From Mobula hypostoma (taxonomy: Eukaryota): 64,000 nt of DNA. A program made the translations under genes and the position numbers. The DNA lies in assembly GCF_963921235.1 (NCBI RefSeq), contig NC_086097.1, positions 80,602,001-80,666,000 on the forward strand, in the 5' to 3' direction. Each line of letters opens with the position of its first letter. Within the stretch, counting starts at the first letter, position 1. Shown here piece after piece: positions 737 to 63,970 of this stretch. Below the pieces are notes generated by a model. The model was given only the letters and a program-made list of their open reading frames with translations, was not told the DNA's origin and did not search any database.

Positions 737-830
737 TGAGCAACACACACAAAATACCAAAGGAACTCAGCAGGTCAGGCAGCATCAATGGAAATAAATT
801 AGCAGCTGACGTTTCGGGCTGAGACATTTC
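737..830 (-). mobile_element. Penelope-like element 3'-terminal (pLTR) fragment inserted into the Tc1 derivative
   Basis: Reverse complement resembles the PLE 3' end at about 26910-27000 (CAACACACACAAAA...GGAACTCAGCAGGTCAGGCAGCATC...GACGTTTCGGGCTGAGAC); possible TTAC duplication at 733-736 and 831-834. Confidence 0.75.
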
Positions 831-4055: not shown

Positions 4056-6628
4056 TGGACAATTCCAGAGTTATTGAACATGTCAGCCTACGCAGTCTCT
4101 TTGAAACTGATGGAGTTTTGGGGGCAAAATTCCATCAGTTAGCTTATACAAGCTTCTCATCAATAGGCGATGCTGGCAGCACACTCACTTGAGCATCCGT
4201 GTCGCCCAGGTAATGTTGCCCTGAAAGGCGTCTGTAATGAACAGAAGATGTCCCTGATCCCTAAATCTGATGGTGGTTGCTGACCACGTGCTGATTACCA
4301 ACATCTTAACAGGCCACCAGTCCCACACATCCAGGACTTTTCCGTACATTTACCCGGAAAGTTAACTGTTTTCCAGAGTTAAGGGCTACCTACAGGTGCC
4401 TGTGTGCCCCGAGAACATTCCCAGAATGGTTATGATAACCGTGTTTGGCCGAGTTTCTGCGCATGTATTTGGGCTGAAAAATGCAGCACAGACTTTCCAA
4501 TGGCTAATGGATCCCATATTAAAAGACATGGTTTTTTCTTTTTTTCACCTGGATGACATACTTGTCACCAGTGCATCCAAATCTGAACACGAGCCTCATC
4601 TCTGCACACTTTTTGAGTGCTTAAGCCAACACGGATTGACTATTAACCCTGCTAAATGACAGTTTGGTTTGTCAACCATTGACTATCTCGGCCATTGCAG
4701 CTATGCCGAAAGCGTGAAACTCTTTGCATTAAAAGTAGCTGCCATTATGGATTTCCCACCACCCTGCATCACAAAAAACTACAGGAGTTTTTAGGTATGG
4801 AAAATTTTTATCACCATGATTTTGCTGAATTTATGCTCCCCCTGTATAGTGTGCTTAAAGGCAACACCCCTAATCATGTGCTTGACTGGTCAGTGGACAT
4901 GACCAGGGCATTTAATGATACCAAACAAGACCCTACTGGCGCCCCCACTCCCCAACGCACCTATAGGCAAAACTACTAACATCTCAGACTATGCTATGGG
5001 TGCTGTGCATGAACAATTGGTTGGAGACTTGTGGTAGCTGCTTGCCTTCTTCAGCCGGCAGCTCCATCCCCCCCAAAAGGAATTACGGCATGTTTGATCG
5101 CGAGCTTCTCTGTCTCTCTCTGGCTGTCCACCATTTTCTTTTTCTTCCAGAGGGTCGCCATTTCACAACGTTCGTTGACCACAAACCCTTCATGCACATG
5201 ATGGCCACAATATCAGGCCCTTGGTCTGCATGGCAGTAACGCCAATTGGCCTACATATCTGAGTTCATAATGGATATACAATATATCAAGGGGGAAAACA
5301 ATGCCGTGGCCGATTGCCTCTCATAGCCAGCCATTGAGGCTGTACACATAGGGGTTAACTATGCCGGTATGGCAGCTGACCAAGTTACTGAATCAGAGAT
5401 TCAGGCTTACCGAACAGCAGTCATGAACCAGCAGCTGGTTAACATTAAATCCGGGGCAGTTGGGGCTTTTCTCCCGTGTGATGTCTCAACCAGTTGCTCT
5501 TTCCCCATCGTGCCCACATACTGGAGATGGATTGTTTTCAACTCCATACATGGCCTCCCGCATGCAGGCCAGAAGGCCTTACAGAAACTGGTTGCACCAA
5601 AGTTTGTTTGGCAAGGCCTCAGAAAGGACATACATGATCGAACTGCAGCCTCTGCGGAGTGCCTGCTGGCAAAAATTAACCGTCATGTACAGATGCCACT
5701 GGCACCTTATGAGGTCCCTGAGCGACGGTTTGACCATGTCAATGTGGACCTTGTTGGCCCTCTTCGCTCCTCCCACAGTTTCACACACCATCTTACCATG
5801 GTGCACTGTACCACCAGGTGGCCAGAGGTCATCCCTCTAGCATCAATGACGTCCACAGACGTGACTCAGGCACTTATTTGTAGCTGGTATTTCCTCTGAC
5901 TGCAGTTCCCAATTCATTTCAGACCTCTGGGCTGTGATGGCCCAGAACTTCGGTGTTAGGCTACATCACACCAAAGCGTATCAACCCCGGTACAATGGCC
6001 TCTGCGAGCGGTTTCACCACTCAAAGGCTGCTCTGAGGGCTTCCTTGACGGACCAGTGTTGGCATGATCATCTCCCATGGGTCCTGCTGGGGCTCAGAAT
6101 TGCTCCTAAAGAGAACCTGCAGTTGTCCGTGGCAGAGTTGGTACACGGGCAGCAATTACGAGTGCCAGGGATTTCATTCCTGATGCCATGACCACCTGGT
6201 TGGCCTCTCAACAGTGTTCCACCTTCCTCAGTAAATTCAACTCCTTTTCACCTATTCCTACCTCCCATCAATGTGAACAGTACTCTTGGGTACCTGTTGA
6301 CCTACATTCTGCTTTGTTTGTTTTCATCTGCCATGATGCACACCAATATCCCCTTAGGAACCCTTGCAATGGCCTGTTTCTTGTTTTGGAATGGAGAGAA
6401 AAGACTTTTTTATCATAGGTAAGAGGGGTAAACCTGAACATTATTTCCAGTAGATTGCTTTAAGCTGGCCCACCAAGATTCAGAGTATTCCACTGCCATG
6501 CCCCTGGCATCACAACATGACCATGAGTGTGTCAACACACCACTGGACAAGCTAGAGGCACTGGCTGTTCCTCCACCCATGGAACACAGGCTCACAATGC
6601 TAGTTATAGTGAATTCTGAGGGGGCCCG

Positions 6629-21492: not shown

Positions 21493-22965
21493 TGTCACAA
21501 TGGCGGGGCATTGGGAGCAAGGGTGGACCCAAATGCAAGACACATCTTGTGAGGTTACTTAGATTTAGTTTATTGTTTGATATCAGGAGAGCAAGGCAGG
21601 AGCAGGAGTAGCGAACTGGACAAGGACTGAGGACTATGACTAGGTTGGGACAAAGGGTCTGGGCTAGGACTTGGAATCGGCTCCCAGAACTAGAGGAGAC
21701 ATGAAGAGGCTAGGGTATGGACTCCGAGCCAGAGACTGGGCAAGGACCCGGTACCTGGGTCTTGCCTCGGGCTTGGACCCCAGAACCAGGCAAGGACATG
21801 ACATGGGCTAGGGAGAGGAGGAACATGGAACACAGAGCCTCGGTCTCGGGAGAGCAGGTACATGGAACCATGGACACATACACACATACACAGAACACAG
21901 AGTCGGGACCCCTCCTTGGGTACAGGACATAGGGCCGGGACTCGCACACAGAACAGAGAGCTGGGACCCCTCCTTGGGTACAGGACATAGGGCCGGGACT
22001 CATGACGCGGGGCAACGGCAAGACGGCCTGACTTACCCCACGGAGGCAAGGACAAGACAAGACAAGACACGACTCCCCGAGGGGCAACGGCAAGATGGCC
22101 TGACTTACCCCATGGAGGCGAGGAAAAGACAAGACAAGACCAACACGAATGAACACCAGACAGTACCTATCTAGCTCCGGTGATTGAACTAGACCGAAGT
22201 GCAGGCAGGGGCTGCAGACAAGGGCTAGAGGCGAGAGGGACAGAGAAGGGATTCAGACAGGGGGTAGGACAAGAATCACAGACCACCAGGGCCAGGACTT
22301 GACTCGGAACTGGGAAGCCGCCAGGACTAGGACTTGACATGGTACTTGAATGCCGCCGGGCCAGGACTTGGACGTGGTACTTGAGTGTCGCCAGGGCCAG
22401 GACTTGGACGTGGTACTTGAATGCCACCAGGGCCAGGACTTGGACGTGGTACTTGAATGCCGCTAGGGACAGGTCTTGGACGTGGTACTTGGATGCCACC
22501 AGAGCCAGGATGTGGACGTGGTACTCAGATGCCGCTGGAGCCAGGACGTGGTGCTTGGAACCTCCGGGTAGTGCCGAGCTCTCGACTTGGCTCGGGAACA
22601 GTAGACTGCGGCTCTTGATTCTCTCCGGCAGGTTAACTGATGGACCCACCTTGATGAGGAAACTTTGCAGGCTCGCTTTGGCGAGGTAACTGGACAGGGT
22701 TGCTCCAGTGAGGAGAGGCGAATTACCGGCACTCGCTTCGGGCGGAGACTAGGCTTGCTCCGGCCAGATGTCATTGGCACGCCGTACCTTTGCAGACACT
22801 CCCGCCCTGAACGGCTGAAAGCCGGAGACTATAAACTACCGATTCAGCTGAGTGTTAATTGCCTCTAATCACCAAAGTTGAGGGACACGGGAAACAGGGA
22901 ATCAACGGTCCGGATCGCAACATAAATAAGCTAAATTTAAAGGGACCCCGATCTGGACCATGACA
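21493..22965 (-). mobile_element. Solo-LTR-like or non-coding LTR derivative (1473 bp) rich in internal tandem repeats
   Basis: TGTCA...TGACA termini; perfect 5-bp TSD CAGGC (21488-21492, 22966-22970); AATAAA on the minus strand near 21570; no RT/integrase motifs. Confidence 0.8.
22285..22560. repeat. 36-bp minisatellite, about 6-7 copies
   Basis: Unit ~GGTACTTGAATGCCRCCAGGGCCAGGACTTGGACGT; GGTAC at 22341, 22376, 22412, 22448, 22484, 22520. Other 2-copy 50-60-bp repeats at ~21885-22140. Confidence 0.9.
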
Positions 22966-25139
22966 CAGGCTCTTGAACCAGCATGGACATCTTCACTCAC
23001 TGGAACACTGAACACAACCTATGGACTCACTGTCAAGGACTGACAACTCATGTCCTCAGTATTATTTATTTATTATTACTTGTTTCTTTTTTGTTTGCAC
23101 AATTTGTCAGTCTTTGTGTGTGGTTTTTAAAATGAGTTCGGTGTATTTTTTCTACTATGAATGCAACCAAGAAAATCTCAGGATAGCATTTGGTGACATA
23201 CACTTTTGATAATAAGTTTACTTTGAACTTTGCAAAATGGAAGAGAAAAGATTACAAATAATAACAATCAGTCAATTCAGAGAAAACAAGCATGTGACAT
23301 AATGAGATCATTTATGACTCTTGATTCCAATTTTCATCTAGCTCTTGACACACTTTCTTTCTCCAGTATATGTCTATCCAGCATCACCCTATCTGTATCT
23401 CTGCTATTCATTGGAACCGTCCCTGTGCCAGCAGCTTCAAACTTTTTCCCACATGCTGAGTGATGATATTCTACCTGAGTTCTTTATTCCTTTCAAGCAC
23501 TCAGCAGTGAAAGAAGGCTATATTCTACTCAAGAATCGCAAAATGTATGAACTGCACTTTTGCAGCCATTATTCAGAAACAGTCTGAACTGATTAAGAGA
23601 CTACAGACATGAGAGGGAAATCCATCAGTTGAAACTGTGGATAGTCCCTATTCAGCAAATTTTCTTCAAAACAATCCACCTCATTCCTCAAGAGAAATTA
23701 TGGAAGACATACATATTAATACGCACACAGTCACTTGTATTAAATTATTTTACTTACGATATTTACATAAGTACAATGTATTATTTGCTCAGTTTGAGCT
23801 TTAAAACAAACATGCACACGATATCTTGAAATGAAAATGCTAATGCTTAAATCTTGCTATAAGTATATTAAATAAAGCTCATGCCGTTGCCATATTATGT
23901 GACATTTTAAGAGGAAATCTGTTTGCTTGAAATACAGTTTCTTTGAGTTATTAACCGTTACTGTGACAAAATCAAATGCATGCCTCAGAATTTAGCTCAG
24001 AATGCCCATGATGGGTTCTGTAGAGATCTTTGGCATCCTCAAAACACGTCATTATTTGTACATTTACTAGGACTAGCATTAGATTATTGATTCAGGTTAT
24101 TGCTCAGGAAATTGATTATCCCCACTTTAGACTGGTAAATCCATGAATTAAGATCATTACAATAGTGCAAAATTATAGTTGTGTTTTATTTGAGAAACAT
24201 CTCCATGATTAAGAAGCAAAGATAATAATGTTTGCTCTGTAAATTTAACCAGCTACTGCAATGATCTGTGCTGTTACAATGATTAAAGCTTTTAAAGGAA
24301 CACACCCCATAGCTGTCCAGAAGCATCTATGGCACTAAGCTTGTTTTGAAGAGAGGTTCAGTGGGGATTAGGATATTCTGGTCAGGAAATACATGCCAGA
24401 AGGAGGAATTTTGCACTCTCAGGGTCAGGAAGCTGTCTAAGACTACCATCAGGGGAAGGTGACAGGAATCAGTGGAAATTCTGAGCTCTACGAGTGATGC
24501 CTTTCACCTTCACAGGGAGTTCCTCAGGATTGAGGATGACTTAGTTCCATTCAAATGTATTATTCATAAGGAAAAGGTTGAAGCTGATATGTTTCTACCA
24601 AACATGGGGCAGGAAGTGCCCAATCAAATGGGTATCATTTTCCTTGTGCCTTCCACTACTTATACAGAGATTCATTGTACTCCTAAGGTATGGATTTGAA
24701 TTTCTCAGTACCCATTCCAAATGTCTTTCTCCAACCGGAGAACCAGGTCAGTAAGTGAAGGATTGGACCATAAGGTAGATTGGACCATAAGGAAAGCATT
24801 GAAAGGCAAAATCAAAATCATAGGTATAATGGGTTGAATAGTTTGAAGTGCGTGTATTTTAGTGCTAGAAATATTGTGGGTAAACATGATGAGCTTAGAG
24901 CATGGATCAGTGCATGGAACTACGATATTGTGGCCATGACTGAAACTTGGTCGTGAAAGGGGCAGGAATGGGTGATTAACGTACCAGGTTTGTGAAGTTT
25001 TAGAAAAGTTAGAAAAGGAGGTGAAAGTGGTGGGGTTGGGAAGAGTATCACAGCTCGACTCAGGGGAGACATACTGGAGGGTTCTGACGCTGAATCAATT
25101 TGGGTAGAACCCAGGAACAGGAAGGGTGTAATTACACTG

Positions 25140-26603
25140 ATGGTATTGTGCTACAACACCCCCACCCCACCCCAGCCCAGTAGCCACTGGGACATTGAGG
25201 AACAGATATGTAACCAGATGAAGGAAATTAGTAAAATTAATAGGGTTGCTGTCATGGGGGATTTCAACATCCTTAATATAAACTGGGACCTTCTTAAAGT
25301 AAGGGGTTTGGATTCCAGACCTAATCAGTTCCCCTCTACCACCACTCTGCTCCGTCTAGCGGAATTAGTCCTTACTCTTAATAATTTCTCCTTTGGCTCC
25401 TCCCACTTCCTCCAAACTAAAGGTGTAGCTATGGGCACCCGTATGGGTCCTAGCTATGCCTGCCTTTTTGTTGGGTTTGTGGAACAATCTATGTTCCGTG
25501 CCTATTCTGGTATCTGTCCCCCACTTTTCCTTCGCTACATCGACGACTGCATTGGCGCTGCTTCCTGCACGCATGCAGAACTCATTGACTTTATTAACTT
25601 TGCCTCCAACTTTCACCCTGCCCTCAAGTTTACCTGGTCCATTTCCGACACCTCCCTCCCCTTTCTAGATCTTTCTGTCTCTGTCTCTGGAGACAGCTTA
25701 TCCACTGATGTCTACTATAAGCCTACTGACTCTCACAGCTATCTGGACTATTCCTCTTCTCACCCTGTCTCTTGCAAAAACCCCATCCCCTTCTCGCAAT
25801 TCCTCAGTCTCCGCCGCATCTGCTCTCAGGATGAGGTTTTTCATTCTGGGACGAGGGAGATATCTTCCTTTTTTAAAGAAAGGGGCTTCCCTTCCTCCAC
25901 TATCAACTCTGCTCTTAAACGCATCTCCCACATTTCACGTACATCTGCTCTCACTCCATCCTCCCACCACCCCACTAAGAATAGGGTTCCCCTGGTCCTC
26001 ACCTACCACCCCACCAGCCTCCGGGTCCAACATATTATTCTCCGTAACTTCCGCCACCTCCAACGGGATCCCACCACTAAGCACATCTTTCCCTCCCCTC
26101 CTCTCTCTGCATTCCGCAGGGATCACTCCCTACACGACTCCCTTGTCCATTCGTCCCCCCCATCCCTCCCCACTGATCTCCCTCCTGGCACTTATCCGTG
26201 TAAGCGGAACAAGTGCTACACATGCCCTTACACTTCCTCCCTTACCACCATTCAGGGCCCCAAACAGTCCTTCCAGGTGAGGCATCACTTCACCTGTGAG
26301 TCGACTGGGGTGATATACTGTGTCCGGTGCTCCCGATGTGGCCTTTTATATATTGGCAAGACCCGACGCAGACTGGGAGACCGCTTTGCTGAACATCTAT
26401 GCTCTGTCCGCCAGAGAAAGCAGGATCTCCCAGTGGCCACACATTTTAATTCCACATCCCATTCCCATTCTGACATGTCTATCCACAGCCTCCTCTACTG
26501 TAAAGATGAAGCCACACTCAGGTTGGAGGAACAACATCTTATATTCTGTCTGGGTAGCCTCCAACCTGATGGCATGAACATCGACTTCTCTAACTTCCAC
26601 TAA
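25140..26603 (+). CDS. Chimeric ORF: ~58 aa of CR1 APE endonuclease fused in frame to PLE reverse transcriptase-GIY-YIG endonuclease (expression unknown)
   Basis: 487-aa ORF; the N-terminus (...VAVMGDFNILNINWDLLKVRGLD) is CR1 EN and the sequence switches at the TSD to PLE (SRPNQFPSTTTLLRLAELVL...). The confidence refers to the sequence identity, not to function. Confidence 0.7.
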   Translation: MVLCYNTPTPPQPSSHWDIEEQICNQMKEISKINRVAVMGDFNILNINWDLLKVRGLDSRPNQFPSTTTLLRLAELVLTLNNFSFGSSHFLQTKGVAMGTRMGPSYACLFVGFVEQSMFRAYSGICPPLFLRYIDDCIGAASCTHAELIDFINFASNFHPALKFTWSISDTSLPFLDLSVSVSGDSLSTDVYYKPTDSHSYLDYSSSHPVSCKNPIPFSQFLSLRRICSQDEVFHSGTREISSFFKERGFPSSTINSALKRISHISRTSALTPSSHHPTKNRVPLVLTYHPTSLRVQHIILRNFRHLQRDPTTKHIFPSPPLSAFRRDHSLHDSLVHSSPPSLPTDLPPGTYPCKRNKCYTCPYTSSLTTIQGPKQSFQVRHHFTCESTGVIYCVRCSRCGLLYIGKTRRRLGDRFAEHLCSVRQRKQDLPVATHFNSTSHSHSDMSIHSLLYCKDEATLRLEEQHLIFCLGSLQPDGMNIDFSNFH

Positions 26604-27033
26604 GGCCCCACCTCCCCCTCGTACCCCATCTGTTACTCATTTTTATGCACACATTCTTTCTCTCACTCTCCTTTTCCTCCCTCTGTCCCTCTGAATATAC
26701 CTCTTGCCCATCCTCTGGGTCACCCCCCCCCCTTGTCTTTCTTCCCGGACCTCCTGTCCCATGATCCTCTCGTATCCCCTTTTGCCTATCACCTGTCCAG
26801 CTCTCGGCTCTATCCCTCCCCCTCCTGTCTTCTCCTATCATTTTGGATCTCCCCCTCCCCCTCCAACTTTCAAATCCCTTACTCACTCTTCCTTCAGTTA
26901 GTCCTGACGAAGGGTCTCGGCCTGAAACGTCGACTGCACCTCTTCCTACAGATGCTGCTTGGCCTGCTGCGTTCACCAGCAACTTTGATGTATGTTGCTT
27001 GAATTTCCAGCATCTGCAGAATTCCTGTTGTTT
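25314..27033 (+). mobile_element. Penelope-like element (Neptune-like), 5'-truncated, young
   Basis: Perfect 10-bp TSD GGGTTTGGAT (25304-25313, 27034-27043); uninterrupted RT (GVAMGTRMGPSYA, RYIDD), Cys-rich linker (CKRNKCYTC) and GIY-YIG (GVIYCVRCSRCGLLYIGKTRRRLGDRFAEH); hammerhead motif in the 3' region. Confidence 0.95.
26899..26936 (+). ncRNA. Minimal type-I hammerhead ribozyme in PLE 3' end
   Basis: TAGTC-CTGACGA-AGGGTCTCGGCCT-GAAA-CGTC^GACTG: stem I TAGTC/GACTG, CUGANGA and GAAA cores, short stem II, loop-less palindromic stem III (ACGU), GUC cleavage triplet ending at 26931. Confidence 0.82.
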
Positions 27034-28878
27034 GGGTTTGGATGGGGCAGGATTTGTTAAGTGTATCCAGGCGGGTTTTTTAATCAATATGTAGTCAGTC
27101 CAACAAGAGGAGGGGCTGTACTGGACCTGGTAATGAGTAATGAGCCTGGCCAGATGACTGACCTTTCAGAAGGTGAACAGTGACCACAAGTACTTAACTT
27201 TCAGGATAGCTATAGGTAAGGATAGGTATGGTCCTTGCGGGAGAGTTCTAAATTGGAGTGGGGCAAATTATTAGGGCATTAGGCAGGAACTGAGAAGTGT
27301 TAATTGGGAACACCTTTTCTCTGACAAGACCACATCAGACATGTGGAGGGTGTTTAAAGATCAATTGCACAGAGTACAGGAAAGGTGTGTTCCTGTTCGA
27401 AGGAAGGACAAGGATGAAAGATAAGAGAACCTTACATGTCCAGAGAGGTGATGAATTTAGTCAAGAAGGAAAAGAAGAAGTTTGTAAATCTTTTGAAGTT
27501 AGGATCAAATGAAGCACGTGAGGAGTATAAAGAAGGCAGAAAAGAGCAAACGAAGGGAATCAGGAAAGCCAGGAGGGGCCATGAGAGCCCTTGGCAAACA
27601 GGACTGAGGTGAATCCCAAGGCATTCTATACATAAATCAAGAGCAAAAGGATAACTAGGGAGAGGGTAAAAGCACTCAAAGATAAAGGGGGTAACATTTG
27701 CTTGGATGCGGATAATGTGAGTGAGGTTATTCATGAGTACTTTGCCTCAGTATTTATCAAGGTAAAGGATATGAAGGACCAGGAGATCATTGCTGAGCGT
27801 ATAAATATGTTAGAGCATTTAGAGGTCAAGGAGGAGGAAGTGTTGAGGCTCCTAATGAGTATTAAGGTGGATAAGTCCCCAGGGCCTGATGGAATTTACC
27901 ACATTATTGAAGGGGGCAAGAGATGAGATTGCTGAGGCCTTGACCAGTACCTTTGTGTCCTTTTAAAGCAAAGGCAAAGTCCCAGAGGACTGGTGAGTAG
28001 CTAATGCTGTACCTCTATTTAAAAAGGGAACAAGGGAAAATCTTGGAAACTATAGGCCCATGAGTCTCACATCAGTTGTAGGGAAATTGCTGGAGAAAAT
28101 TGTTAGCGATTGGATATATGAACATTTGGAAACCCATGGCCTAATTAGGGAGAGGCAGCATGGCTTTGAGTGGGGTAGGTCATGTCTTACTAACTTGAGT
28201 TAGTGTTTTGACAAGGCGATGAGAGAGATTGGATTGATGAGGGTAGAACAGTGGATGTTGTCTTCATGGATTTTAGAAAAGTATTTGACAAAGTCCCTCA
28301 TGGGAGGCTAATGCAGAAGATTGAGATACATGCAGTGAATTGGCCAGAACAGGCTTGTGAATAGAAGACAGAGGGTAGTGGTTGAAGGGAAGTATTTGAG
28401 TTGGAGATCTGTAATCAGTGGAGTTCCACAGGGATCTGTGCTAGGAGCTCTGCTGTTTGTGATGTATATAAATGACCCGGATGAAAATGTAGATGGGTGG
28501 GTTAGTAAGTTTGTGGCTGATACCAAAATTGGTGGAGTTGTGGATAGTGTAGAAGACTGGTAAAGAATACAGTATCAATCAGTTGCAGATATAGGCAGAG
28601 AAATGGCAGATGGAGTTTAAATGTAAGGTGTTGAGCCTTGGTAGGGAAAATTCAAAGAGACAGTACACAGTTAAGGGCAAGATCCTTAACAGTGTGGCTG
28701 AGCAGAGGGATCTTGGGAATCCAAGTTCATAGCTCCTTGAAAGTGACTACACAGATCAATAGGGTGGTTAAGAAGACTTAAGGAATGCTTGCTTTTATTA
28801 GTTGAGACATTGAATTCAAAAGTCAAGAGGTGATGTTGCAACTTTATAAAACTCTGGTTAGGCCTTACCTGGAGTATT

Positions 28879-29015
28879 GCAATCACAAGCAAGACAAAAT
28901 TTGCAGATGCTGGAAATCCAAGCGACACACACAAAATGCTGGAGGAACTCAGCAGGCCAGGCAGCATCTATGGAAAAGAGTACAGTCGACGTTTCAGGCC
29001 AAGACCCTTCAGCAG
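28879..29015 (-). mobile_element. PLE terminal fragment with partial hammerhead (CUGCUGA core)
   Basis: GCAGATGCTGGAAATCCAAGCGACACACACAAAATGCTGGAGGAACTCAGCAGGCCAGGCAGCATC...CAGTCGACGTTTCAGGCCAAGACCCTTCAGCAG; replaces part of the host CR1. Confidence 0.85.
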
Positions 29016-30484
29016 AGCTCATGAGAGTGTGGACAAACTGGAGTTGTTTTCTCTGGAGTAGCAGAGGTGGGGGGTGGGGGAGATCTGGTCGAGGTTTATA
29101 AGATTATGGGAAGCATAGATAGAGTAGACTGGGAGTACTTGTTTCCCAGGGTAGAGATGTCTGATACCAGAAGGCATGCATTGAAGGTGAGAGGGGGTAG
29201 GTTCAAAGGGACTGTGAGATGTAATTCTCTTACTCAGAGACTGATAGGTATCTTAAGTGCGCTGGCTGGTATGGTAGTAGAGGCAAATACATTAGAGGGT
29301 TTTAAGATATGTTTAGATAGCCACATAAATGTGAGGAAGATGGAGGGATCTGGACATTGTGTACGGAGGAGTTGATTTTTGTGTGTGTTTTGATTTACTT
29401 TTTAGGTGTTTCGCCACAACATTGTGGGTCAAAGGGCCTGTTTCTGTACTGTATTGTTCTATGTTCTATGTTCTGTGTATAGTGGATTATCCAGCCATCA
29501 AGAAAAGTTTGTACTTTTGAGACAAAATCCTTTCAGTTTTGGAACCGGACCAGGCAATTCCTTCAGTACATTTATGAATCCAGCTAAAAATACAGTACTT
29601 GATGGCCAGAGCCAATGTAGCAGCTTCCATTACAGCAAGAGAGAATGAAACAGAGGGAAAGTGAGCTCCCCTAGAACAGTATCCATCAGTAACCATCCCT
29701 GCTCGATGATGGATTTCAAACTGGAATCGGTTGTAAATAATTTAAACTGGAAAGGTCTTAATACATTAAAGTTCATACCTACAATGACCTTGCAACCCCT
29801 GGGTATGTGATTGTGGATGCTGAGCCTATTGGAATATTCAAGATGGATATCTTTTTTTTTGCTGTATAGTGATAACAAGCGACAAGCAAAATGGATGGGA
29901 GAATAAAACATATCGTTCCTAAGGGGCTGAAGAGTTTCTCAAATAATTTTTGGAATATTGTTCCAGTATTCCACTGATCTGAGAAATAGAAATTTTCTGA
30001 AAAATAGGGAATTGACTGTTTTGTTTATGATTCTCAGCACTTCAAGTGAAAGTGTATGGACTGGGAGTTTGATAGTACCACCTCTGCTCCTTGTTCCCTT
30101 GCCTTCTAGGTCCACATTGACCTTGGGTTATCATTTACATGAACAAAGTTCACCCACATCCATGGTTTGACAGCTGAAAAAATCTCCCCTTCACTCCAAA
30201 TGTCTACATTATTAGTGTTTTAAAAACTGACAATATCTCTGATATTCAAAAGTAATTATTGCCTTAATGTTACTTAAAAGCATTAAACATTAAAAAACCT
30301 TTCAAACTAAACTAACATAATTCTATTTATTTGTTAATAGCATCATTAATTCAAGAAATTGTAAATGAACTGAGACTCACCATCTCTCCCATAACTTATT
30401 CTCTCCATAGAAATGAATTAAGTAGCTGAAATTGTACCAACTATTCTGGTGCTAGTTCAGTGGGCAGACTTCCCATTATGACTG

Positions 30485-31405
30485 CAAACACAAGGAAATC
30501 TGCAGATGCTGGAATTTCAAGCAACACACATAGAAGTTGCTGGTGAATGCAGCAGGCCAGGCCCACCGATCTCCCTGCTGGCACTTATCCTTGTAAGCAG
30601 AACAAGTGCTATACATGCCCTTACACTTCCTTCCTTACCACCATTCAGGGCCCCAGACAGTCTTTCCAGGTGAGGCGACACTTCACCTGTAAGTCAGCTG
30701 GGGTGATATACTGCGTCTGGGTCTCCTGATGTGGCCTTCTATATATTGGCGAGACCCGACACAGACTGCGAGATCATTTCACTGAACACCTACGCTCTGT
30801 CCACCAGAGAAAGCAGGATCTCCCAGTGGCCACACATTTCAATTCCACGTCCCATTCCCATTCTGATATGTCTATCCATGGCCTCCTCTACTGTAAAGAT
30901 GAAGCCACACTCAAGTTGGAGGAGCAACACCTTATATTCCGTCTGGATAGCCTCCAACCTGATGGCATGAACATCGACTTCTCTAACTTCTGCTAATGCC
31001 CCACCTCCCCCTCGTACCCCATCCATTATTTATTTATTTATATACTGTACACACATTCTTTTTCTCTCTCTCCTTTTTCTCCCTCTGTCCCTCTCACTAT
31101 ACCCCTTGCCCATCCTCTGGGCTCCCCCCTCCCCCTTTTCTTTCTCCCTAGGCCTCCTGTCCCATGATCCTCTCATATCCCTTTTGCCAATCAACTGTCC
31201 CGCTCTTGTCTCCATCCCTCCCTCTCCTGTCTTCTCCTATCGTTCTGGATCTCCCCCTCCCCCTCCCCCTCCCCCTTTCAAATCTCTTTCTAGCTCTTCT
31301 TTCAGTTAGTCCTGACGAAGGGTCTCGGCCCGAAACATCGACTGTACCTCTTCCTATAGATGCTGCCTGGCCTGCTGCGTTCACCAGTAACTTTTATGTG
31401 TGTTG
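30485..31405 (+). mobile_element. 5'-truncated PLE with an inverted terminal copy at its 5' end
   Basis: 16-bp TSD CTTCCCATTAYGACTG (30469-30484, 31406-31421); 30485-~30562 is the reverse complement of the PLE 3' terminus; ~30563-31405 matches ~26170-26998 (linker, GIY-YIG, 3' region). Confidence 0.93.
31307..31344 (+). ncRNA. Minimal hammerhead ribozyme copy (stem III mutated)
   Basis: TAGTC-CTGACGA-AGGGTCTCGGCCC-GAAA-CATC-GACTG; a G>A change at a CpG breaks the ACGU palindrome. Confidence 0.7.
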
Positions 31406-49247: not shown

Positions 49248-49581
49248 CTTCTCAATATTTTTATTGATACTATATAAATTGCACGAATACAAATACAAAA
49301 TTCATAAGGATACAAGTAAATAATATGAGTTACATTTTTTTTTACCAACCAGCTCATTTTGGTGGTGGGGGTAGATTTTTTAAAAATAAAATACAATTAT
49401 TTTATTTTATTTCATTTCATAATTCAATCTTTTTTTCTAGATGATTGATTTGGAATATGGGATACTGTGATCATATTACTGTGATTTAAATGTAATGTAA
49501 TTCATATTATTTACTTGTACCCTTATGAATTTTGTATTTGTATTCATGCAATTTATATAATATCAATAAAATATTGAAAAG
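49248..49581. mobile_element. Fold-back/MITE-like insertion with ~88-bp inverted arms and 9-bp TSD
   Basis: Arms 49248-~49336 and ~49494-49581 are reverse complements with few mismatches; AATAATATT duplicated at 49239-49247 and 49582-49590; host CR1 rejoins as GCTAGCCAATAATATTAAAGAGG. Confidence 0.85.
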
Positions 49582-52914: not shown

Positions 52915-53050
52915 AGTGGAGCCAAAAGAGGCTACAGATACTGGAATTTGGAGCCAAAAAAAAAAGTTCAATTGGAGGACCTAGCAGGTTGGGCAGCACC
53001 TGTGGAGGTAAATGGACAGTTGATATTTTAGGTCGCGAGCCTTCATATGG
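52915..53050 (-). mobile_element. Degenerate PLE terminal fragment
   Basis: CAGATACTGGAATTTGGAGC...TGGAGGACCTAGCAGGTTGGGCAGCACCTGTGGA...GGACAGTTGATATTTTAGGTCG resembles other pLTR copies. Confidence 0.6.
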
Positions 53051-53189
53051 ATTGATTCTTGACAATAAATACCAGCTGTTTATCTTTTTGGATAGATACC
53101 ACCTGACCAGCTTAGGACACCTGGCAGATTGTTTTGCAGTGTATATCCCCCAAAGTTGTTCTGTAAGGGAGTGAGATGGATTAGCTGGT

Positions 53190-54489: not shown

Positions 54490-54870
54490 CAAGCAGCACA
54501 CACAAAATGCTGGAGGACCTTTCAGGCCTGGCAATATCTATGGAAAAGAGTGACCAGGCAATGTTTCAGTTCAAGACCCTTCATCAGGACTGGAAAAAAA
54601 TGAGAAGTCAGAGTCAGCAGGTGAGTGAAGGGGATGAGAAGGTACAAGGTGGTAGGTGATAGGTGAAGCCAGGAGAGAGATGGGTGAAGTAAAGAGCTGG
54701 GAAGTTGATTGGTGAAAGATATAAAGGGCTGGAGATAGGAGAGGGTAGAAGTGGGAGGAGCACCAAAGGGAGGTGATGGGCAGGTAAGGAGGTATAGTGA
54801 GAGAGGGAAATGGGAATGGGGAATGGTAAAGGAGAGGGTTGAGGGGCAATTACTGGAAGTTTGAGAAATC
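54490..54870 (-). mobile_element. PLE 3' fragment with degenerate hammerhead (54555-54592)
   Basis: Minus strand reads CAGTC-CTGATGA-AGGGTCTTGAACT-GAAA-CATTGCCTG; includes the end of the GIY-YIG ORF (DFSNFQ). Confidence 0.85.
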
Positions 54871-62394: not shown

Positions 62395-62870
62395 TTGTTG
62401 GGCTTTGCAGCCAGATTGTTGAGAACACAGCCCTACCTATCATGAAAACCAGCCTCACCTCCATTGACTCTATTTGTACTTCCTGCTGCCTCAGGAAAGC
62501 AGCCAAGAGAATCAAGGGACCATCCTAGCCCATTCTGTTGTCCTCCCCTCCCATTGGGCAAAAGAGGCAAAACTTGAGAACACATATCACCAGACTCAAG
62601 GACAACTTCTAACCTGCTGTTATAAAACTCTTGAATGGATTTCTTATGGTATAAAGATGAACTTTTGATCTTTCAGTCTGCCTTGTCTTGGCTGCTGAAC
62701 TTTGTCTATCCGCGCCGCACTTTCTTTGTAACAGCAGCATGATATTCTGCATTCCATCCTTCTTTTCTTTTGTATTACTTTGATATATTGATGTGTGGAA
62801 TAACCTGCCTGGATGGCACGCAGACAAAAGTTTTTCATTGTATCCTGGTTTAGCTGACAATAATAAACCA
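62395..62870 (+). mobile_element. Rex1/L2-type LINE 3' relic
   Basis: TGCAGCCAGATTGTTGAGAACACAGC...GCTGCCTCAGGAAAGCAGCCA...CCAGACTCAAGGACAACTTC...GACAATAATAAACCA. Confidence 0.65.
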
Positions 62871-62875
62871 AGCCC

Positions 62876-63970
62876 AAACAAGAGAAAATATGCAGTTGCT
62901 GGAAATCCGAGCAATACACACAAAATGCTGGAGGAATTCAGCAGGCCAGGCAGCATTTATGGAAAAAAGCACAGTCGATTCTTCAGACTGAGACCCTTCA
63001 GCAGGACTGGGGAGAATAAAGATGAGGAGTCAGAAGGAAAGTGGGGGGGAGGGAAAGAAGAACCACAAGGTGATAGGTGAACCCTGGAGGGGTGAAGTAA
63101 AGAGCTGGAAAGTTGTTTTTGTGAAAAAGATACAGGGCTGGAGAAGGACGAGTCTGATAGAGGACAGAAGGCCATGGAAAAAAAGAAAAGGGGGAGGAAC
63201 ACCAAAGGGAGGTGGTAGGCAGACAAGGACATAAGGTGAGAGAAGGAAATGGGAATGGCAATGATGAAGGGGGGGGCATTATCAGAAGTTTGAGAAATTG
63301 ATGTTCATGCCATCAGGTTGGAGGCTACACAGATGGAATACAAAGTGTGGCTCCTCCGGCCTGATTGTGGCCTCATCGCAACAGTAGAAGAGGCCGTGGA
63401 TGGATATGTTGGAATGGGAATGGGAAGTGGAATTAAAATGGGTGGCCATTGGGAGATCCCTCTTTTCAGATGGACAGATAGAGAGTAGATGCCCGGCAAA
63501 GTGGTATCCCAATCTGCGTTGGGTCTCATCGATATACAGGAGGCCACACCAGGAGCACTGGATACAGTATATGACTCCAACAGACCTCACTTGGAAGGAC
63601 TGTTTGCGGCCCTGAATGGTAGTGAGGGAGGAAGTGTAGGGGCAGGTGTAGCACTTGTTTCACTTGCAAGGATAAGTGCCAGGAGGGAGATCAGAAGAGA
63701 AGGATAAATAGACAAGCGAGTTGTGTAGGGAGCAATCCCTGCAGAAGGCAGCAAGTGGGGCAGTGGGGGGAGAGAAAGATGTGCTTGGTGGTGGAATCCT
63801 GCTGGAGATGGCAGAAATTATGGAGAATTATGTGCTGGATATGGAGGCTGGTGGGGTGGTACATGAGGACAAGAGGAACTCTCTATCCCTGGTGGGATGG
63901 CAGGAGGATGGGGTGAGTGCAGGTGTGCGCAAGATAGAAGAGATGCGGTTGAAGGCAGCTTTGATGGTGC
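62876..63970 (-). mobile_element. PLE, 5'-truncated (RT thumb, GIY-YIG and 3' end with degenerate hammerhead at 62972-63009)
   Basis: ORF 63282-63590 GVIYCIQCSWCGLLYIDETQRRLG...LQPDGMNINFSNF; colinear with ~25900-27033. Confidence 0.92.

Follow-up and report, generated by a model that had tools for sequence, protein, structure and literature searches.

The window, the 64-kb stretch of Mobula hypostoma DNA analyzed here, contains a 5'-truncated and likely Neptune-type Penelope-like element (PLE), c1, whose 3' terminal repeat quite probably carries a loop-less minimal hammerhead ribozyme (min-HHR) that likely cleaves only when paired within a tandem transcript of the parent element, likely aided by protein, the c1 copy itself likely being a passive relic. 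The 38-nt motif lies on the forward strand (Table 1), and its bases are exactly those quoted in the original prediction; the full hammerhead core, 5-bp stem I, GUC triplet, and loop-less ACGU stem III claimed there were each confirmed base by base. The core elements CUGANGA, GAAA, and UH are all present with type-I topology. In hammerhead numbering, positions C3 to A9 correspond to 26904 to 26910, and an extra, unpaired A (26911) sits between positions 9 and 10.1, as the same extra base does in 12 of 12 strict matches among the related loci described below. Stem II consists of four pairs (26912 to 26915 with 26920 to 26923) and is followed by G12 (26924) to A15.1 (26927), C15.2 (26928), G16.2 (26929), U16.1 (26930), and C17 (26931). 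The outermost of the five stem I pairs is U-G, and helix III is reduced to the ACGU palindrome, with loop 3 absent. The motif is located in the pLTR, 301 nt 3' of the RT-GIY-YIG open reading frame (ORF) and 102 nt before the element end. A point missed in the original prediction is that stem II of c1 opens with a G-U wobble at 10.1-11.1, a site that is G-C in all 11 aligned relatives; across copies of the family, G-U is present in c1 and in most of the depth of a DNA run (C in 19%), and G-C is present in copy c2. The G10.1-C11.1 pair is described as typical rather than absolute, and rows with G-U occur in the published min-HHR set (PMC4209133).

Table 1. Features of c1, its host LINE, and the other copies of the family in the window
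Feature	Position	Strand	Remark
Decayed LINE hosting c1: endonuclease and RT remnants	24860..29400 (approximate limits)	+	
Left 10-bp target-site duplication of c1	25304..25313	+	
c1, 5'-truncated PLE with second half of RT, Cys linker, GIY-YIG, and 3' terminal repeat	25314..27033	+	
Open ORF remnant of c1	25314..26603	+	No internal stop; 5' part missing; stop at 26601-26603
Minimal type-I hammerhead motif of c1	26899..26936	+	Predicted cleavage after C26931
Palindromic loop-less helix III (positions 15.1, 15.2, 16.2, 16.1)	26927..26930	+	Same four bases in 11/12 strict matches among related loci
~100-nt tail 3' of predicted cut site	26932..27033	+	Family 3' end maps to 27033/27034 (loose contig ends)
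Right 10-bp target-site duplication of c1	27034..27043	+	
c2: independent shorter insertion, same family	30485..31405	+	88% identical to c1
c2 hammerhead motif	31307..31344	+	G16.2-to-A (CpG transition) at 31337; G-C at 10.1-11.1
c3: short 3'-end copy, related subfamily, antisense, between c1 and c2	28884..29022	-	Core position 6 is C; 5' strand of stem I missing
c4: older copy, 71% identical	62868..63969	-	Broken ORF, decayed core, C at position 6
c5: decayed 3'-end copy	54491..54595	-	
c6: decayed 3'-end copy without 5' half of core	739..825	-	
c7: strongly decayed copy	52972..53055	-	

That the motif sits in the 3' terminal repeat of a PLE of the Neptune type, as had also been predicted, is supported by the reverse transcriptase (RT), the Cys linker, the GIY-YIG domain, and the position of the motif behind the ORF. 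The ORF remnant contains RT motifs at 25413 and 25533, a CX2-5CxxC linker between RT and endonuclease (EN) at 26199, and the GIY-YIG domain at 26307. With RT followed by a C-terminal GIY-YIG within one ORF, c1 is an EN+ PLE, and because it lacks the 5' half of RT it is not autonomous. Searches with the c1 protein gave 789 relatives, the best of which were from rays (93% identity in Mobula hypostoma and 75 to 85% in Hypanus sabinus), followed by sharks at 56 to 70% and then by many sequences at approximately 50%. The element inserted into a decayed LINE, which we take to be of the CR1 type, and comparison to a further LINE copy, near 46.7 kb, shows that the c1 flanks rejoin without a seam. The long frame at 24996-26603 is thus chimeric: its first third is the LINE endonuclease remnant, and the PLE begins at 25314. 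The insertion put the two remnants, LINE endonuclease and Penelope RT-GIY-YIG, in frame with one another over 535 open codons, a fusion that is likely accidental. A candidate UnaL2 LINE 3' stem-loop at 26977-27030 (E = 3.9) was treated as chance, as it was not repeated on copy c3. The CX2-5CxxC linker between RT and EN is described as a Neptune trait that is common to Nematis and Naiad (PMC8557442), and Neptune and Poseidon are the PLE groups reported in vertebrates in a 2026 preprint. This linker, together with an Acropora Neptune motif found in a related locus (below), makes it likely on sequence grounds that c1 is of the Neptune type.

We asked how readily such a motif could be found by chance. 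The bare core pattern matched four times in the window compared to 1.04 expected, a number reached in 2 of 100 shuffles, and by itself is modest evidence. When stems were required, as in the motif-descriptor search that had been proposed as a check, 26899-26936 was the sole match on both strands of the window. The Rfam search also proposed as a check gave no match to any hammerhead family at gathering score across the window and none in 26700-27100 even at E ≤ 10. These missed matches, a folding z-score of only -1.24 for the isolated 38-mer, and a bare pattern expected once per 64 kb would all suit a chance look-alike with no hammerhead ancestry, a reading to which we assign practically no probability and which was ruled out by what lies downstream of related ORFs and by the covarying stems found there. 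Of 546 related loci, 80 were retrieved from metagenome contigs, and 41 of these include the ORF end followed by 300 nt or more of sequence. A strict descriptor of the loop-less min-HHR matched 84 to 130 nt behind the ORF in 12 of the 41 loci, with the ACGU palindrome in 11 of the 12 matches (loci L001 and L002 are near duplicates); the same descriptor matched none of the 41 opposite strands and none of 50 shuffles per locus. A model built from 11 strict matches plus c1, and hence circular for its training rows, found downstream motifs, by our reading of its output, in 21 of the 41 loci at E ≤ 0.1 and inverted motifs upstream of several related ORFs; 20 of the 41 loci were without any downstream motif even by this model. 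The motif in one locus, L014, is identical to that published for the Acropora digitifera Neptune element in the 2014 supplement, and the protein encoded at this locus is related to that of the window (43% identity).

When the 12 distinct motifs were aligned, the core was invariant and the flanks were unrelated. Eight of the 11 pairs vary on both sides, 89% of cells pair, and covariation was 0.617 compared to 0.205 after shuffling and at most 0.098 after sliding, figures that are inflated in part by construction since the rows were preselected by a descriptor that demands stems. The ray element and distant elements agree in their catalytic positions and in the palindrome even though their proteins are only approximately 50% identical (49% for L003 and 51% for L054). 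Taken together, these comparisons of sequence argue that the c1 motif belongs to a real minimal type-I hammerhead lineage, and conservation of core and palindrome amid unrelated flanks is what would be expected under selection for catalysis. More distant relatives (L051, L053, L058, L064, L067, L069, L070, and L074; approximately 33% identity) have a different hammerhead-like core 250 to 420 nt behind the ORF.

The prediction that this copy cannot fold as a monomer and needs a partner was borne out insofar as its helix III, judged from its bases, would be unable to close within one strand, so that the catalytic form would need a second copy. By analogy with known dimers, two copies would exchange the strands of stem I and join their ACGU palindromes in a 4-bp intermolecular helix III, forming two active sites that would each cut after C17 and thereby release unit-length element RNA. 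The likely working setting, we infer, would be a tandem transcript of the parent element bound by the element's own protein. PLE hammerhead dimers have reportedly been described by Lunse et al. For a Schistosoma min-HHR, the monomer is described as inactive and dimers and trimers as weakly active, and the hammerhead ribozyme (HHR) of Anolis carolinensis Poseidon is reported to cut only with the element's protein (PMC11167929). In the isolated c1 38-mer, stems I and II fold and the core is filled by other pairs. When the natural flanks were included, the pairing probability of stems I and II was approximately 0, and a competing hairpin at 26917-26933, which covers the cut site, had a probability of 0.5 to 0.98. 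In a nearest-neighbor model, which leaves out the tertiary contacts of the hammerhead core, the c1-c1 double hammerhead had an energy of -11.5 kcal/mol compared to -22.0 kcal/mol for two c1 monomers and -30.3 kcal/mol for the cofold minimum. The competing folds and weak double-hammerhead energy fit the published weak-dimer behavior in Schistosoma and protein dependence in Anolis.

Six further copies of the c1 3' end (c2 to c7) are present in the window. The second sense-strand copy that had been predicted, with its mutated stem III, was confirmed in c2. The 5' end of this copy is an inverted 3' tail of 78 nt, and a stop codon interrupts its ORF remnant; its own 16-bp target duplication (one mismatch), its inverted tail, and its 88% identity to c1 show that it is a separate insertion and not the second pLTR of one element. 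No tandem copy of the element was found in the 64-kb window, and the only arrangement traits seen were the c2 inverted tail and the inverted upstream motifs of related loci. The copies are dispersed, with no short head-to-tail non-coding repeats, and c1 has an ORF remnant, which sets them apart from non-LTR retrozymes. A C at core position 6 is shared by the two related-subfamily copies (28981-29022 and 62968-63009, both on the minus strand) and could be a subfamily trait, to judge from these two sequences. It was seen in under 3% of family contigs, a count that is insensitive so near the edge of homology, and when a frame spanning the motif was translated and searched at the protein level to count position-6 variants, no candidate emerged. 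In other hammerheads, this C is a natural variant that favors Mn2+ over Mg2+ and slows cleavage in Mg2+ (PMC7151607). Among other features of the window are a tandem array with a 36-nt period at 22322-22551, an inverted repeat at 49259-49571 (78-nt arms, 95% complementary and 157 nt apart) that is possibly a miniature transposon, and a frame at 5327-5899 with an integrase zinc-binding domain that is likely an LTR retrotransposon remnant.

The original prediction had further suggested that read-through RNA could pair c1 with c2, 4,408 nt away, and be cleaved at the c1 locus. Both copies are on the sense strand and have identical stem I sequences, three of the four helix III pairs are left and the two next to the c1 cut site are intact, the family appears in probable RNA runs, and a Latimeria family row of the 2014 supplement shares the CAUC ending of c2 (PMC4209133). 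We nevertheless consider such pairing very improbable. Each inserted separately, with a target duplication of its own, and the mixed double hammerhead of the two, in which one C-A mismatch falls in the partner helix III, had an energy of -8.3 kcal/mol, 3.2 kcal/mol weaker than the homodimer. In addition, the hairpin over the cut site competes with it, four AATAAA/ATTAAA sites and the antisense copy c3 lie in between, c3 could pair with c1 or c2 over approximately 70 nt, a 5'-truncated copy is not expected to have a promoter, and no host gene was found among the 23 window frames scanned (a scan that short exons escape).

The wider family was examined by placing contigs on 26790-27040 (251 nt), with 105,755 from one DNA run that may share its source with the window, 8,238 and 5,891 from a pair of probable RNA runs, and none from a fourth run, of raw reads. 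Variant counts from these contigs are depth weighted, carry reference bias, and leave some differences uncounted. Among the variants listed, only two in the motif exceeded the CpG level, at position 7 (C to T, 15%) and at 11.1 (T to C, 19%), and both fit the fold. None of the 13 core and helix III positions varied at 12% or more. Across the motif, 2 of 38 positions had variants at or above 12% compared to 12 of 107 in the flanks, a difference that was not significant (Fisher p = 0.36); the excess conservation over flanks anticipated in the original prediction was thus not significant within the family but present across families, where the core is invariant, the stems covary, and the flanks are unrelated. 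In the DNA contigs, CpG transitions at G8, 15.2, 16.2, 17, and 1.1 were at 5.9 to 9.3% compared to 8.3 to 11.2% in loop II and the flanks, and each core CpG position was intact in more than 90% of contig depth. Since core CpGs decay about as fast as those of the loop and flanks, the copies look approximately neutral, and the G16.2-to-A change of c2 is one such event. Viral contigs, metagenome contigs, and prokaryote genomes, scanned with DNA patterns for additional ray copies, yielded none.

Differences of A to G at 26837, 26872-26874, 26881, 26948, 26950, and 26978 reached 2 to 14% in the two probable RNA runs compared to 0 to 2% in the DNA run, with no extra T-to-C differences in the probable RNA runs beside them. 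This excess possibly reflects edited sense transcripts of the family, not of the c1 locus specifically, and the samples differ. Three DNA contigs and one probable RNA contig have a 35- to 37-nt hammerhead unit duplicated head to tail (from 26934 back to 26900) and so represent rare natural tandem pairs. A pyrimidine tract and two AG sites at 26878-26901 lie just before or inside stem I, resembling Drosophila virilis Penelope, in which the intron end is reported to abut helix I. No splice joint ending at these AG sites was present among the joints listed, for which a donor may lie outside the 251-nt stretch.

The abundance of the family raises the question of whether its copies dimerize in trans, or between neighboring insertions, often enough to cut host transcripts. 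The large contig numbers from all three runs and the core CpGs intact in over 90% of depth speak for this, and the four intermolecular helix III pairs, the competing folds, and the low activity reported even for cis dimers in Schistosoma speak against it, leaving it in our estimate highly unlikely. As a broader conjecture, dispersed, mostly core-intact, and apparently sense-transcribed copies might furnish ray transcripts with cut sites that are activated by pairing and form a network across the genome, and a position-6 C subfamily, if there is one, might have escaped cleavage that depends on Mg2+; we hold this to be improbable. If dispersed copies did cut host RNA in pairs, this would be a new cost, or a new use, of retroelement relics.

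Loose contig ends clustered at 26900/26901, 26936, and 27033/27034. Those at the 5' edge of stem I (590 and 223 contigs) occurred in DNA and probable RNA contigs alike, and the sequence before them shows low agreement, as expected for mixed subfamilies and for short copies that start at the stem I edge; those behind 26936 run on into the tail of a related subfamily. No pile-up of loose ends was present at the predicted cut site among the rows listed, for either DNA or probable RNA contigs. Ends gathered at the stem I edge and not at the cut site would suit a motif kept for a role other than essential cleavage, such as protein docking, a reverse-transcription boundary, or that of a passenger, with cutting dispensable. 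In the same direction, Anolis Poseidon HHR mutants are reported to insert normally in vitro, with no reads ending at the cut site (PMC11167929), Naiad elements are described as thriving without canonical HHRs, with the suggestion that HHRs may parasitize PLEs (PMC8557442), and position-6 C occurs in two window copies and the 10.1-11.1 wobble in c1. However, at approximately 50% protein identity and amid unrelated flanks, every catalytic position persists along with the palindrome, and the relatives that have been tested do cleave, if weakly, so that we regard a dispensable role as unlikely. We therefore retain cleavage by paired copies in the parent transcript as the probable function of the motif. 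The c1 copy is likely a passive relic, as indicated by the separate target duplications, the neutral-looking CpG decay, and the near-zero pairing of stems I and II when the flanks are included. What PLE hammerheads do in vivo is described as still open (PMC8557442), and an abundant ray family offers many copies for end mapping and subfamily comparison.

The architecture had been thought possibly uncharacterized in the original prediction. In fact, Cervera and De la Peña (2014) argued that the motif can dispense with both helix III and loop 3, the basis on which they defined the min-HHR (PMC4209133). Their set comprises 56 motifs, of which we counted 41 as loop-less and 29 as carrying the ACGU palindrome; the core and CG-UC ending of c1 recur in 13 (PMC4209133), those of fugu, lamprey, Xenopus, a snake, and an Acropora Neptune element among them. 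The zero-loop ACGU helix III is therefore already described and is not new; what is new is the addition of a ray family to the known min-HHR class. No chondrichthyan min-HHR family was found in the published literature searched or in the 56-row 2014 table, a scope outside which Lunse et al. and the preprint supplements fall; the 2026 preprint samples one chondrichthyan for retrozymes. Like the min-HHRs of metazoan PLE pLTRs, the c1 motif has type-I topology, an intact core, an extra base between positions 9 and 10.1, a short stem I, palindromic positions 15-16 without a loop 3, and a location behind the ORF of a truncated copy (PMC4209133). It differs from that set in that the 56 rows are without cartilaginous fish, its 4-bp stem II is at the short end, and its 10.1-11.1 pair is G-U rather than the typical G-C, as it also is in Xenopus and cichlid rows (PMC4209133).

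The Acropora digitifera Neptune HHR shares with c1 the same 5' core, including the C at position 7, the GGG with which stem II begins, and the loop-less core (PMC4209133, Table S1 and Fig. S3), whereas its stem I, loop II, and flanks differ, and motifs of the Acropora type lie approximately 100 nt behind the ORF compared to 301 nt in c1. In Anolis carolinensis Poseidon, as in c1, the HHR lies in the pLTR and genomic copies end approximately 100 nt beyond it (Frangieh et al. 2024, PMC11167929), an end that has been explained by internal initiation of reverse transcription. Poseidon, however, belongs to the Penelope/Poseidon clade without the Cys linker, and its ORF starts inside the HHR (PMC11167929). 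The dimeric hammerheads of newt and axolotl retrozymes likewise have a weak palindromic helix III and are active as dimers (PMC7229834). These retrozymes, unlike c1, are short non-coding units repeated in tandem, with a small loop 3 as well as contacts between loop 1 and loop 2 (PMC7229834), whereas the copies in the window are dispersed.
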